Source of the DNA: a virus
Taxonomy: Duplodnaviria; Caudoviricetes
Strand: one strand, 5' to 3'
Length of the DNA: 64,000 nt
Virus record (IMG/VR): IMGVR_UViG_3300034062_006701
A program made the position numbers and the translations under genes. Positions 266-13,982 of the stretch are shown here, piece by piece. The notes under the pieces are model-generated. The model was not told the origin of the DNA, made no database searches, and was given only the letters and a program-made list of their open reading frames with translations. Every line of letters starts with the position of its first letter. Position 1 is the stretch's first letter.

Positions 266-344
266 CTCTTTTATACGATCCTCTCACCAACGCGCTGGTA
301 TCAACAAGGCATCGAGTCTGCTTTTCTTTATTCCCTCTGCATTT

Positions 345-930
345 GTGCTGGGGTTACAACACGATTAGGACTTGAGACCTTTGGCGACTACGGATAGCTA
401 ATCCATTCACCAGTAGCATTACTAAAGAAATTATTGGTATTGAAAGATTTTATTCCGGATTTTGTTCTTTCCTCAACGGGTACCGGCATGGAGCCAGCGC
501 GCCGTCCAGTCTGTGTTTATTAAAGCAAGGGATCAAAGCTGTACGCAGGTTTTTGGCTCCCCCTCTGAAAATACGTCTACTAACTTACCAACAGACAACT
601 CAACGCATCTCTCCCACGGATTATACCTACAACGCGGGAACTTATTTTAATGATTACTGGCCTATCGGAGCTAGGAAGTTTATAGCTCCCGTTCTTTAAG
701 ACTTGTGAAACTCTTAAAACTACTAGGTCGCTACTACCCGCGGCTTCGGACTAGTATTGCTACTACCGAGAACTATACGCAGTAATCAAATTATTATGAC
801 CGGGGTGGTTGTAATCCATCCTAGTGCACCGGTTGATGAAGGCCTTTCAGAGCGAACCTAGTCACGCACACGTACGGTTCAGACCTTAGATGGTCTTCGG
901 CTCTTTCGATCGAGCCTGCGAACGGTCAAA
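345..930 (-). ncRNA. Large ornate ncRNA, GOLLD-like (~590 nt; ends approximate)
   Basis: No credible ORF; many hairpins (GGCTC/GAGCC, GACC/GGTC, GAACC/GGTTC, ACCGG/CCGGT, TAGTA-GCAA-TACTA, TTTAAGA/TCTTAAA, GGAGCTA/TAGCTCC); perfect long-range helix TGATTACTG/CAGTAATCA (780-788 with 651-659); ordered blocks CGTTGAGT, CTCCATGC, TGGATTAGC..GCCAAAG and terminal GTGTTGTAACCCCAGCAC resemble the GOLLD 3' domain as I recall it; directly downstream of a tRNA. Confidence 0.65.
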
Positions 931-932
931 TT

Positions 933-1005
933 TGGCAGGGCCGGGAATCGAACCCGGAATCTTGTGGTTATGAGCCACACGACTTAACCGTTTGTCCACC
1001 CTGCG
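933..1005 (-). tRNA. tRNA-Met (CAT), initiator-like
   Basis: Cloverleaf CGCAGGG..CCCTGCC A; anticodon arm TGTGG-CTCATAA-CCACA; T arm CCGGG-TTCGATT-CCCGG; C1.C72 mismatch; CCA not encoded. Confidence 0.9.
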
Positions 1006-1018
1006 TTAAAATGTACTA

Positions 1019-1071
1019 TCAAAGATCAATTCTTATTCCATTAATATATAGTCTATAGTAGGGACTGGCAA
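1019..1071 (-). promoter_or_regulatory. Sigma70-type promoter plus boxA-like element for tRNA-Met and the GOLLD-like RNA
   Basis: TTGCCA (1071-1066), 17-nt spacer, TATATT (1048-1043), then TGATCTTTGA (1028-1019). Confidence 0.7.
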
Positions 1072-1081
1072 GAATAAAAAA

Positions 1082-1158
1082 TGGCACGTGGTGAAAGAAT
1101 CGAACTTTCCCAATCGCTTTTGGAGAGCAATTCGCCTATCCTTGGAACATTACCACGC
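1082..1158 (-). tRNA. tRNA-Trp (CCA)
   Basis: Acceptor GCGTGGT/ACCACGT, G73, encoded CCA; anticodon arm TTGCT-CTCCAAA-AGCGA; T arm GAAAG-TTCGATT-CTTTC; weak D arm. Confidence 0.85.
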
Positions 1159-1164
1159 AAAAAG

Positions 1165-1247
1165 TGGAGCCTGTGGAGGGACTCGAACCCCCGTTGTTTG
1201 TATACCACTTTACAAAAGTGGTGCTGTCGCCGCTGAGCCACACAGGC
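1165..1247 (-). tRNA. tRNA-Thr (TGT) with a 12-nt variable region
   Basis: Acceptor GCCTGTG/CACAGGC, U73, encoded CCA; anticodon arm CCACT-TTTGTAA-AGTGG; T arm GGGGG-TTCGAGT-CCCTC. Confidence 0.8.
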
Positions 1248-1262
1248 GTGAAAATTATTTAG

Positions 1263-1347
1263 ACCGCAACTAGAGCGAATTCAATCTTTCGGAGGATTGC
1301 TAATACCTCGTTCCTAACAGGAATTCTACCTGCTCTCTAATTGCAGT
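1263..1347 (-). ncRNA. Unassigned 85-nt structured RNA
   Basis: Ends pair in a 13-bp stem with G-U pairs (ACTGCAATTAGAG / CTCTAGTTGCGGT) enclosing hairpins GCAGG-TAGAATT-CCTGT and CAATC-CTCCGAAA-GATTG; sits between tmRNA and tRNA-Thr. Confidence 0.6.
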
Positions 1348-1351
1348 AAAT

Positions 1352-1800
1352 TGGTGGAGGCGTCGGAGATCTGCCCTCCGAGTCCTTATAATATTTCTCT
1401 TATATTTTCTACACGCTTATGTAAGTTTAGGATTTGATTGACTACAGGCTCCTATGGCTTACCAGCCTATCTTTTTAAGTCTGCCTATATAGATGAAGAG
1501 TTCTATACAACCCCTTGTACTGAGTTTTCTAGGAGTCACAAGTACCTCCATAACCTATTGGTTTAGCTCCCTAAGATCTTTAATAGGATCCAATCTTAGT
1601 TTTTAGGCAGCGAGGAGTGACTCTTCTTCGCAGCTGGCGAGGATATCGTCAGCGTTGTTGAAACAGTACTCAGCTTCTGCTAAGAGCGCATCGATGTTAT
1701 CTTCTGCGTTTAGTTTTTTAGAAGGCTTTTATAGTGGCCAACCTTCCAACCACTGCGTGCAATATAAAACCAGACTATAAGTCGATTCTATGTCGCCCCC
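1352..1800 (-). ncRNA. ssrA: tmRNA (one-piece, 449 nt)
   Basis: 5' GGGGGCGACATAGAATCGAC; 3' CGCCTCC-A-CCA giving G3.U70; pk1 (GTGG/CCAC, GAAGGT/GCCTTC); resume context AAACTAAAC-GCA; tag ends LAA. Confidence 0.93.
1603..1707 (-). other. tmRNA tag reading frame AEDNIDALLAEAEYCFNNADDILASCEEESLLAA*
   Basis: Resume codon GCA at 1707-1705 to TAA at 1605-1603; 34 sense codons. Confidence 0.85.
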
Positions 1801-1807
1801 ATAAATT

Positions 1808-1872
1808 TCAAAGATCATTGAGCGTATATGCTCTTATTTCCTATAATATATATGCTCTAGAGAGTGTGGCAA
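1808..1872 (-). promoter_or_regulatory. Sigma70-type promoter plus boxB-like hairpin and boxA-like element for the tmRNA-tRNA operon
   Basis: TTGCCA (1872-1867); -10 TATATT or TATTAT (16 or 18-nt spacer); hairpin GAGC-ATATAC-GCTC (1833-1820); TGATCTTTGA (1817-1808). Confidence 0.7.
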
Positions 1873-1906
1873 GTCTTAATCTGCTTGGTTTTTAGCTATT
1901 TTTTAC

Positions 1907-1912
1907 TAAATA
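1907..1912 (+). promoter_or_regulatory. T4-like late promoter TAAATA (representative of many copies)
   Basis: TAAATA just upstream of starts; also at 11532, 17534, 21761, 32741, 38020, 39883, 41194, 41785, 44897, 54344 (+) and 11344, 48370, 54293, 61744, 63073 (-). Confidence 0.75.
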
Positions 1913-11549: not shown

Positions 11550-13982
11550 ATGTCTGATAACGCACGTTTTCATAATAAGCTACATAGAAAAAATCACCAT
11601 ACCACACCAACAGATGGGTATCCTGATTCCGCTACAGATCCAATTGCTTCAGAATCTGAGCCGTTTACAGGCGATTTTTTCTTAAACGGTAATTTAAATG
11701 TCTCTGGTGCAATAAACACAGTCTATAACACGCTTTCAAATATTAGCATACCTGTTCCGGTGTTATCAGCACAAATAGGCTTTCAACCGTCAAATTCACT
11801 CGTTGTTCAGCTTTCCGGTGTAAAGTATGCCATACCTGTTACATTGGTTGGTGATAATACCTTTAATAACGGGACATCTGGTATTAACTCTCTAGCTAAC
11901 TATGTTACCTATCTCGGTAATGTATCATCAAGCGGTACATTATCTGGAAAAGACAGTGATAACTGGAATCTAATCTATTCAACTGTAATAGCAAATAGCG
12001 GTAGTTGGAACGGTGGTAATAATGTTTATACCGCGGTCGGTACAAATAGCGGTAATTGGGACGGTACATATACCACAGTAAACACTAATAGCGGTAATTG
12101 GAATAGTAATGTAGCAGTATCAAATTATGTTATTACAAATAGTGCTACATTTGATAATTCATATACATCATCTGTCTATGCAAAGCTATCATCACTAGCT
12201 TACACATTTAACTATAGTAACAATTCTATACAGGCAAATTCTTTAAATAATTGTACCCCCGGTCAACTAGCTGGTGTTCTCGCTGGTCTCAATAATAATG
12301 CCTGTGGTTATGCAGCTGTTGTTGCAGGTGGCGGTACAAACACAGCATCTGGTAATTACTCTATAATCGGTGGTGGTGGTGGGAATATCGTTAGCGGAAA
12401 TAATAGCGGTATTCTAGGTGGACTTAATAATTCCGTTTCAGGTTGTAACTCATTTGCAATTGGATCTGGTATTATCGCTACGGCACCTAACTACGCATTT
12501 GTTAATAATCTATCCTCATTAGGCACGGTAAATGCACTGAGTGGTTACATGCAAATTATTAGTATAGGTAGAGCAGAGATCGGTAATCAGCTTTCTAACA
12601 CTGTCGGGCAATTCTTTTCTAATGTAAATACATTTTCACAAATAAATCACCAGAATGTCTGTAACGGTACAAATGCATCAACCGATTACATCGCTACTGC
12701 CGACAATGGTAATGATTCCTGTTATTACGCTGATCTCGGTATTAATAGCAGTTTCTATAGTAATTCAGCATACGACATAACAGGTCCGAATGATGCATAT
12801 CTCTTTACACATGGCTGTAATCTCGCCGTTGGTACAACTGGTGATACAGGTGATGTAATTATACATACAGGTGGCTCAAGAGCGCAGAATGAGCGTATGA
12901 GAGTAACCGCCCTAGGTAATGTTGGTATTGGTACTAGTGTACCGGGATCAACTCTTACAGTTATCGGAAGTATCTCCGCAACTGGTACAGTATGTTATTC
13001 TAATCCCATCTATTGTGTAGGTGCAGCTCCAAATTCTGTTGTTCCTGCTAATGGCTCTAATACAAGCTCGGGATGTTATAGTGTTGTTTTAGGTGGTTCA
13101 CAAAATATAGCTACAGGCACAAATAGTGTTATCGGCGGTGGTTTAATTAATTCTGCGCTCGCTGAATATAGTGTTATAGGTGGTGGTCAATTGAATAATT
13201 CTACCGCCAGCTACACATTTGTTGGCGGTGGTAATTTAAATACAACAGAATCATCATATAGTAGCATATTAGGTGGTAGATGTAATGAAATAACTTCAAA
13301 TTCAGGATATTCAGTTATCGGCGGGGGTCAGAATAATACCGTTACAGGTATCGGTTCCGTAATAAACGGAGGAACATCAAATACTGTTTCATCTAACTAC
13401 GGTATTATTGTAGGTGGTAATAGTAACAGTATATGTACAGGTGCAAGTGCATCCTTTATTGCTGGTGGTTGCAATAACCAGGTTTGTGCGACTGCAAATA
13501 ATTCATTCATACTCGGTTCAAGTATACAGGCAATCGAGCCAAATTATACATACGTCAATAACATTGTCTCACAAGGTAACATTTGTGGCAATAGCATTAT
13601 AGGAAATGCCGTATACGGCACAACACTAAACGGTGGTACTGTTAGCGGCACGAATTTTATAACATTTAACGAATACAATTATGGTAATAGTTTAGTAGCC
13701 GGTGACTTGACTGTCATTGGTACTATTAATGCTACAGCATACACCGGTCTTTCCTCAAATAGATTTAAGTATAGTACTATTATCGGTGATGGTATACTCT
13801 CAAGCTTTACTGTTAATCATAATTTAAGCACGGAAGATGTTTTCGTAACAGTCGTTGACTACACTACAAAAGAGGTGGTGTACCCATCTATAAGAATACC
13901 CAATCAGACACAAATTGATGTGGGGTTCTCCTTCATACCGCCAGCTTCAAGCTATAAAGTACTCATTTTAACATCACTTTAA
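11550..13982 (+). CDS. Tail fibre / adhesin-like protein with 15-aa GG-x-x-N repeats
   Basis: GGGLINSALAEYSVI-type repeats, GNVGIGT repeat, C-terminal VNHNLSTEDVFV domain; late promoter. Confidence 0.7.
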   Translation: MSDNARFHNKLHRKNHHTTPTDGYPDSATDPIASESEPFTGDFFLNGNLNVSGAINTVYNTLSNISIPVPVLSAQIGFQPSNSLVVQLSGVKYAIPVTLVGDNTFNNGTSGINSLANYVTYLGNVSSSGTLSGKDSDNWNLIYSTVIANSGSWNGGNNVYTAVGTNSGNWDGTYTTVNTNSGNWNSNVAVSNYVITNSATFDNSYTSSVYAKLSSLAYTFNYSNNSIQANSLNNCTPGQLAGVLAGLNNNACGYAAVVAGGGTNTASGNYSIIGGGGGNIVSGNNSGILGGLNNSVSGCNSFAIGSGIIATAPNYAFVNNLSSLGTVNALSGYMQIISIGRAEIGNQLSNTVGQFFSNVNTFSQINHQNVCNGTNASTDYIATADNGNDSCYYADLGINSSFYSNSAYDITGPNDAYLFTHGCNLAVGTTGDTGDVIIHTGGSRAQNERMRVTALGNVGIGTSVPGSTLTVIGSISATGTVCYSNPIYCVGAAPNSVVPANGSNTSSGCYSVVLGGSQNIATGTNSVIGGGLINSALAEYSVIGGGQLNNSTASYTFVGGGNLNTTESSYSSILGGRCNEITSNSGYSVIGGGQNNTVTGIGSVINGGTSNTVSSNYGIIVGGNSNSICTGASASFIAGGCNNQVCATANNSFILGSSIQAIEPNYTYVNNIVSQGNICGNSIIGNAVYGTTLNGGTVSGTNFITFNEYNYGNSLVAGDLTVIGTINATAYTGLSSNRFKYSTIIGDGILSSFTVNHNLSTEDVFVTVVDYTTKEVVYPSIRIPNQTQIDVGFSFIPPASSYKVLILTSL

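Follow-up and report, generated by a model that had tools for sequence, protein, structure and literature searches.

A conserved, structured minus-strand RNA follows the CCA end of tmRNA in an uncultured T4-like freshwater phage and its relatives

We describe an 85-nt RNA element (X) that is encoded between the tmRNA and tRNA-Thr genes of an uncultured, freshwater, T4-like phage, within a 64,000-nt stretch of DNA (the window) that represents part of its genome. X is a real, conserved and structured RNA of the minus strand. It has no Rfam family match and its fold is kept in eight distinct homologues, in agreement with a first-pass annotation that had called it an unassigned structured RNA from the letters of the window. 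It constitutes a new, uncatalogued family of eight sequences plus one RNA-library variant (the comparison was with Rfam 15, not with the viral RNA catalogue of 10,006 candidates), and its place is among the orphan structured RNAs of phage tRNA clusters, a kind already known. Our preferred reading, which we put at a probability of about 0.42, is that X is a small RNA that would be excised by ordinary tRNA-processing cuts, be stabilised by its closing stem, and act through its core on a partner. Positions within X are numbered in the direction of the minus strand, with X1 at window position 1347 and X85 at 1263.

The 577-aa protein encoded adjoining X shows up to 67-68% identity to virion proteins of Synechococcus myoviruses (cyanomyoviruses), and the domains encoded nearby include RNase H, NT5C, 2OG-oxygenase, KaiC/RecA-like and gp44-type clamp-loader domains. 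X itself lies in a minus-strand RNA operon without ORFs, in the order tmRNA, X, tRNA-Thr, tRNA-Trp, tRNA-Met (Table 1), where it begins 4 nt after tmRNA and ends 15 nt before tRNA-Thr, all on one strand. The two flanking genes, already named in the first-pass annotation, were verified, tmRNA by Rfam and tRNA-Thr by both Rfam and ARAGORN, and with X placed inside the tmRNA/tRNA transcription unit, processing of these neighbours would release it, as had been expected. The sigma-70-like promoter listed upstream of tmRNA is, judged by its match to the consensus, the likely start of the X-containing transcript. Two other observations concern this operon. The tRNA-Trp(CCA) at 1082-1158(-) is an ARAGORN call that scored 21 bits with the Rfam tRNA model (threshold 29) and has acceptor-stem mismatches; and the tail of the ORF-free region 255-930 holds a weak type-P1 twister match at 328-425(-) (28.3 bits, E 1e-3, threshold 67 bits).

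Table 1. Positions of X, its parts and its neighbours in the window.
Feature	Position	Strand	Basis or remark
Sigma-70-like promoter ahead of tmRNA; TTGCCA and TATATT/TATTAT, 16-18 nt apart	1843..1872	minus	10/12 consensus match only
tmRNA, CCA encoded; upstream neighbour of X, same direction	1352..1800	minus	Rfam RF00023, 85.7 bits, full-length model
AUUU spacer, single-stranded, 4 nt, from CCA to closing stem	1348..1351	minus	homologue alignments
X, 85-nt structured RNA; closing stem around three hairpins, or double pseudoknot	1263..1347	minus	MFE, covariance model R1
Closing stem, 5' arm, X1-13	1335..1347	minus	four pairs change on both sides, e.g. G4-C82 to A-U; 96-97% of cells paired
Hairpin 1, X15-31; 5-bp stem, conserved 7-nt loop UAGAAUU	1317..1333	minus	two compensatory pairs
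36-nt core, X35-70; GAGG/CCUC helix and second GAAUU	1278..1313	minus	homologue alignments
Closing stem, 3' arm, X73-85	1263..1275	minus	covariation
CTAAATA box, late-promoter-like; directly after X, 8 nt before tRNA-Thr	1256..1262	minus	box survey of window
tRNA-Thr(UGU), 83 nt, 12-nt variable loop; downstream neighbour of X	1165..1247	minus	ARAGORN and Rfam, 55.1 bits
tRNA-Trp	1158..1082	minus	ARAGORN tRNA calls
tRNA-Met	1005..933	minus	tRNA calls

Folding of the minus strand of X gave a minimum free energy of -29.1 kcal/mol (z -3.55; 1 of 200 shuffles was as good), compared with -19.9 kcal/mol (z -2.16) for the plus strand. The 13-bp closing stem (X1-13/X73-85) contains three G-U pairs that would be A-C mismatches in a plus-strand RNA, so that both the stem and the strand preference attributed to X by the first-pass annotation were borne out. 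Within this stem hairpin 1 (GCAGG/UAGAAUU/CCUGU; 5 bp, 7-nt loop) comes first and a purine-rich linker next, and beyond them stand two more hairpins, GAGG/CCUC with a loop of 10 nt and CGAA/UUCG; hairpin 1, the linker and the GAGG/CCUC hairpin had been described previously and all are present. The two GAATTC palindromes pointed out in the same description lie at 1277-1282 and 1321-1326, and the window as a whole is not enriched for this sequence (12 sites versus 16 expected). The suggestion that these palindromes, with GAGG/CCTC, make X bistable by way of an alternative rod fold was not supported: the rod lies 5.8 kcal/mol above the preferred fold, with an ensemble probability close to zero, and it is further disfavoured because it would destroy the covarying hairpin 1.

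Homologues were recovered by pattern scans from lake viral and metagenome contigs, and comprise eight distinct sequences: that of the window and those of contigs L004/L007/L091, L005/L095, L089, L090, L092, L093 and L094. They scored 78-125 bits with covariance model R1. The same model found no further homologue in 94 related sources and no divergent one in 80 virion-protein-gene loci or 35 orf215-syntenic loci, and X was single-copy in every whole contig searched with it. Pattern-scan matches in L001-L003, L006, L008, L096-L098 and L263, and at 210 loci of prokaryote genome contigs among the matches listed, were set aside as coding or chance matches. When the RNA operon was compared by BLAST with 50,697 phage records, only pieces of tRNA matched and X did not, and the core sequence of X gave no text match in the papers searched.

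In all eight homologues X starts exactly 4 nt after an encoded CCA (the spacer being AUUU, once UUUU). The gene that supplies the CCA is tmRNA in seven and tRNA-Asn in L094, and in the latter about half of the closing stem is different and the stem is 6-7 bp longer, with the 4-nt spacing and the 36-nt core unchanged. The core is identical in five of the eight, and one loop base differs in the window and in L004/L007; the neighbouring proteins of the X-bearing relatives (2OG oxygenase, NT5C) are only 42-65% identical. In a model-guided alignment of the eight sequences, which are mostly close relatives, 96.6% of the cells of the proposed structure were paired, compared with 36-48% when the pairing partners were slid by 1-3 columns, and none of 500 column shuffles reached the observed values. 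Six pairs change on both sides, four of them in the closing stem and two in hairpin 1; in hairpin 1 the changes are C-G to A-U and, in two sequences, A-U to C-G. The first-pass annotation had held that an absence of compensatory changes in relatives would count against it; six compensatory pairs were found instead. The G-U pairs and the G-C/G-U alternations can be accommodated only by a minus-strand RNA.

The core never varies, and therefore its inner helices, pseudoknots included, draw no support from covariation. Modelling is suggestive, though not proof, of an H-type pseudoknot in which GAGG/CCUC would be stacked on a helix X49-52:X63-66, with the A-rich CGAAAG as third loop, and it is likewise suggestive, not proof, of pairing between the GAAUU of the hairpin-1 loop (X22-26) and X67-71. 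Both proposed helices are 100% paired across the homologues. The only two core changes that are informative for this model, U49C (window) and C71U (L094), are switches between wobble and Watson-Crick pairs. G72, which would be unpaired in the pseudoknot model, is A in L005, a change that disrupts the nested hairpin 3 with which the pseudoknot competes.

The place that X occupies was surveyed at the same locus in 35 relatives, which were fetched by means of the neighbouring gene orf215. The slot between tmRNA and tRNA-Thr was seen in four states: empty, or filled by X (7 contig types), by an HNH gene, or by other inserts. It is empty in L362, where an 8-nt spacer (L362:4642-4649) leads from tmRNA to an identical tRNA-Thr. 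In L360, L368, L375 and L379 it holds a free-standing gene for a 133-aa HNH endonuclease (PF01844, 25.6 bits) with its own TAAATA box, located right after the tmRNA CCA in L360 and L379 (L379:6767-7168(+)) and after an extra tRNA-Ala in L368 and L375. Larger inserts occupy the slot of L359. In the tmRNA tree the X-less L362 is the sister of the window (91.8% identity, support 0.999) inside the X-bearing clade, which implies that X was lost there or that the slot was exchanged. More distant relatives, including a complete genome of 211 kb, have tmRNA followed by an AU-rich spacer only and no X. Since relatives that lack X nevertheless have tmRNA, X is not required for tmRNA maturation as such. 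X adjoins two different types of tRNA-Thr, and tRNA-Asn in L094; there is no target-site duplication at X and no similarity between X and the HNH cassette.

Other features of the surrounding RNA genes also vary. A group I intron (RF00028, 78-84 bits) lies near the tRNA-like 3' end of tmRNA in the X-bearing L004 (3301-3525(-)), L007 (2277-2501(-)) and L092 (1413-1617(+)), unlike in the window, whose tmRNA has none. The variable loop of tRNA-Thr(UGU), at 12 nt, is unusually long for class I and gives a total length of 83-92 nt; the long-loop form was seen in the window (1165-1247(-)), L089:8027-8109, L095:4584-4667, L092:1751-1840 and L360:8503-8594, and other relatives have a normal tRNA-Thr of 71-76 nt in the same place. 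In L359 the segment 8914-9060(+), which follows the tmRNA CCA and UUUU, begins like the 5' half of a tRNA (GGGAUUGUAGCUCAGUUGG...); ARAGORN was silent there, tRNA-Thr is about 2.3 kb away, and the segment may be an interrupted tRNA gene.

Of 33 start codons tested in the window, 12 have a TAAATA box 5-8 nt ahead of them, which leaves no room for a ribosome-binding site. Examples of the box are 1906-1912(+) and 1262-1256(-), boxes before the starts at 11550, 17550, 21780, 32752, 38032, 39898, 41796 and 54357, and boxes before the minus-strand starts 48362(-), 61738(-) and 63067(-). YTAAATA follows X in six of the eight homologues, and, as the box stands before tRNA-Thr just as it stands before start codons, tRNA-Thr probably has a late promoter too. 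L004/L007 carry a U8 run after the closing stem instead, and L094 a U-rich tract followed by a sigma-70-like promoter; no such U-rich stretch follows the stem in the window and the five other homologues, and terminator scans of the window and of L004 left X unflagged. By these signals X is, in every homologue, the last element of the predicted upstream transcription unit.

The operon of a near relative is present in an RNA library. One lake metatranscriptome (run X15) contains an 841-nt contig with a depth of 186 that spans tmRNA, X and tRNA-Thr and carries two changes in X, C82U (G-C to G-U) and G19A (also in L089); an assembled contig of this sort does not reveal ends or abundance, or whether X occurs as a discrete species. 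In the same run, the depth of contigs from the flanking RNA genes was 3-4. In the 841-nt contig the tRNA-Trp segment (window 1048-1160) is replaced by 165 other letters, so that strains differ at the tRNA-Trp slot as well. From runs X16-X18 came contigs that covered tmRNA only, or none that covered X, where absence of cover is not evidence, and words of X occurred in two RNA runs of one study, with fewer than five words in each.

Among known systems the nearest in setting are rnaC (species 1) and rnaD (species 2) of phage T4, small non-tRNA RNAs that lie 1-6 nt from a tRNA in a T4-type tRNA operon, directly after tRNA-Arg. Both are transcribed together with the tRNAs and freed when these are processed; to our knowledge, no function has been assigned to the stable RNAs of T4-type tRNA clusters after fifty years. 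X shares what marks this kind, being a non-tRNA RNA a few nt from tRNA-type genes, on one strand, in a T4-like phage. It differs from rnaC and rnaD in that these are longer (139 and 119 nt) and fold differently, in that rnaC has a canonical GGUUCGAAUCC T arm and X has none, and in its own invariant core and proposed double pseudoknot; a search of the T4 tRNA cluster with R1, filters off, detected nothing at rnaC or rnaD. A second parallel is with sRNAs from tRNA spacers such as 3'ETS-leuZ of E. coli. These begin a few nt downstream of the CCA that ends the final tRNA-like gene of a transcript, are freed by a tRNA-maturation cut, and have a stable 3' helix that can double as a terminator; 3'ETS-leuZ base-pairs with sRNAs on Hfq. 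X differs here too, being far more structured and conserved, and no target was detected for it in the 64-kb window: on both strands, no duplex partner for the core stood above shuffled controls (best -32.4 versus -29 to -32 kcal/mol).

The preferred reading, an excised small RNA that acts on a partner, can be set out as follows. X would be a small RNA module that folds on its own, carried by a lineage of T4-like freshwater phages. An early promoter of the sigma-70 type would drive its transcription together with tmRNA, or with a tRNA in one relative. The host's tRNA-processing enzymes would then free it. An endonucleolytic cut, at a site of the RNase E or RNase P type, would fall in the single-stranded AUUU that separates the CCA from the stem; the other end would be made by RNase P as it forms the 5' end of the next tRNA, or by termination at a U run where no tRNA follows. 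The closing stem of 13-19 bp would shield both ends and leave a stable RNA of some 85-90 nt. Its working part would be the 36-nt core together with the conserved hairpin-1 loop, most likely in a fold where a pair of short pseudoknot helices stacks on GAGG/CCUC, and together they would offer a sequence-specific surface to a protein or RNA partner. The covarying stem, the rigid core, the dispensability of X for maturation of its neighbour and the two types of upstream gene together argue for a sequence-specific function of its own and against a mere spacer.

Several known elements were considered and dismissed. The sole match to the antitoxin RNA ToxI, for which tandem repeats of 34-36 nt matching the ToxI model were required, was a 9-nt edge on the plus strand (E 6.4), and X is single-copy. 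In prokaryote genome contigs, matches to the core pattern were single per locus and of chance number, which disposes of a CRISPR-repeat mimic. An 11-nt identity (GGUAGAAUUCC) with helix h23 of E. coli 16S rRNA is of borderline chance and the implied pairing is unconserved. Mimicry of SD/anti-SD was dropped by eye. The GGA of a possible CsrA sponge lies in the variable linker, a sarcin-ricin motif is broken in the window, a likeness to guanidine-III (ACGAGG) has the wrong order of helices, and a MITE is contradicted by the single copy, the lack of target duplication and the G-U covariation.

Other explanations have to be weighed against the preferred one. An unlikely one, still to be taken seriously, is that X serves only in cis, as a bulky 3'-end module that directs the maturation cut of the tmRNA or tRNA, blocks 3' exonucleases or terminates the early transcript, with the 85-nt RNA as a by-product; such a module would also insulate the early transcript from the late promoter that follows. 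RNase P favours U at -1 before a long helix, and RNase E favours AU-rich single strands beside stems, and the surroundings of the AUUU spacer suit both; the constant 4-nt distance from the CCA is also compatible with action in cis alone, the spacer and its length hold even before the longer L094 stem, and what comes behind X, always the last element, is a promoter in L094, a U run in L004/L007 and a TAAATA late-promoter box elsewhere. A processing or terminator stem, however, needs neither an invariant 36-nt core nor a conserved hairpin loop, the same tmRNA is matured without X in close relatives (8-nt spacer in L362, none in L037 and L029), and six of the eight homologues lack a U run after a stem that the terminator scan passed over. 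A bolder proposal is that X founds a new class of pseudoknot RNA, catalytic or ligand-sensing, placed directly after CCA-ending RNAs (tmRNA, tRNA), which would either cut itself free and leave a ready 3' end or gate this step in response to a signal; we consider it quite unlikely as a whole. In its catalytic form, which is improbable, X would be a new self-cleaving ribozyme that cuts at or near AUUU and frees the CCA end of the upstream tmRNA or tRNA. The invariant core, the context of CCA, AUUU and stem, and the two different upstream genes would suit this, as would the sub-threshold twister-P1 match in the same operon. Theta ribozymes offer a precedent, being conserved small HDV-like RNAs of tailed phages that lie immediately 3' of tRNAs, within 5 nt, and are postulated to remove 3' trailers (PMC10879173). 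They differ in their nested double-pseudoknot HDV fold, in cleavage at their own 5' end and in that only 4.5% of their tRNAs encode CCA (PMC10879173), whereas X has a covarying 5'/3' stem and stands behind a 4-nt spacer after CCA-encoding genes. No known self-cleaving ribozyme model (hammerhead, twister, twister-sister, pistol, hatchet, HDV-like, hairpin) matched X at E<=10, and X lacks a CUGANGA core. The covarying pairing of its ends is incompatible with HDV P1, and the hatchet ribozyme is a linear P1-P4 stack (PMC6154101), a topology that X does not share. Any 2',3'-cyclic phosphate left on the CCA-bearing RNA would moreover have to be healed, the RNA-library contig runs uncut through the site (a weak point, as contigs merge molecules), and the prior for a new class is low. 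In its ligand-sensing form X would be an aptamer, an orphan riboswitch-like pseudoknot whose closing stem governs termination or processing after tmRNA. The compact invariant core, possibly an H-type pseudoknot with an A-rich third loop, and the P1-like stem would be in keeping with this, as would the U-rich sequences that follow the stem in L004/L007 and L094. A glutamine riboswitch, also a small conserved structured RNA at ssrA, is on record beside the two-piece tmRNA of aquatic T4-like myophages, namely the OM43 phage Melnitz and pelagimyophages (PMC9004378). The tmRNA beside X is one-piece, however, X matched neither glutamine riboswitch model (glnA, RF01739; Downstream-peptide, RF01704) nor those for preQ1, guanidine or other riboswitches, most homologues have no expression platform, and no regulated protein gene lies downstream; we give this form little credence.

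The behaviour of the slot raises the prospect that X belongs to a recombination hot spot as a selfish or exchangeable cassette, kept there by linkage to the HNH homing endonuclease gene or by competition with it, for example as an allele that splits the target of the endonuclease. The four slot states, the two tRNA-Thr types, the tRNA-Asn of L094 and the presence of segB inside the tRNA cluster of T4 lend it some colour, but a target-splitting insert needs no conserved fold, no compensatory G-U-containing pairs and no invariant core, and the single copy of X, the absence of a target-site duplication and the lack of resemblance to the HNH cassette leave it very doubtful. The identity proposed by the first-pass annotation, a Y-RNA-like RNA of the YrlA type or a tRNA mimic, which would work with Ro60/Rsr or with tRNA enzymes, is scarcely tenable. 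X does share with YrlA, the partner of Rsr (Ro60), a long end-to-end stem that closes a multi-helix domain, and a U-A pair of the T-loop type is possible in the hairpin-1 loop in seven of the eight homologues. All 4227 families of Rfam 15, Y RNA models included, were run with cmscan, once with gathering thresholds and then with E<=10, over 1 kb and over 112 nt, the latter under the laxest filters, and none matched X, neither the Y-RNA and YrlA models nor those of the tRNA clan (RF00005 included, E<=10); nor was a TROVE/Ro60 domain found in 30 ORFs scanned in the 64-kb window. For a tRNA we looked for a 7-bp acceptor stem, a D arm, an anticodon arm with a 7-nt loop and a GTTCRANYC T arm. Hairpin 1 has the 5-bp/7-nt geometry for which it had been called T-arm-like, but its loop (UAGAAUU; CAGAAUU in L089) is not of the T-loop consensus. 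X has no GGUUCGAAUCC-type T arm, no GG in its other loops that could mark a D loop, no tRNA-like pair of T and D arms, and no conserved bulged helix for binding Ro. At its default ARAGORN called no gene; a threshold of 80% produced only a nonsensical 'tRNA-???', whose anticodon would have 4 nt and whose register disregards the covarying stem. The linkers of 0-1, 6-9, 0 and 0 nt misfit both a cloverleaf and a permuted tRNA, and a 4-bp stem with a 10-nt loop stands where an acceptor-like helix would be needed. We attach next to no weight, finally, to a promoter at the DNA level in the 5' half of X (TTTACT, 16-nt spacer, TAGAAT), from which a transcript would start at the core: it matches the consensus at 9 of 12 positions in the window (1350..1323) and in L004, but the -35 element is absent in L094, the -10 element is weakened (CAGAAT) in L089, and the stretch taken for a promoter forms pairs with the 3' end of X that show compensatory changes.

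What X means for these phages depends on which of these readings holds. If X serves as a decoy for a protein or an RNA, it would extend the list of RNA-based means by which phages manipulate their hosts. If X is a processing handle only, its invariant core would need another explanation. Should the core be catalytic or bind a ligand, X would be a new class of RNA tied to tmRNA maturation, and maturation of phage tmRNA would then be a regulated, RNA-autonomous step. With its covarying fold, its rigid core, its fixed position after CCA, and the knock-outs and replacements that exist in nature, the function of X is directly testable.
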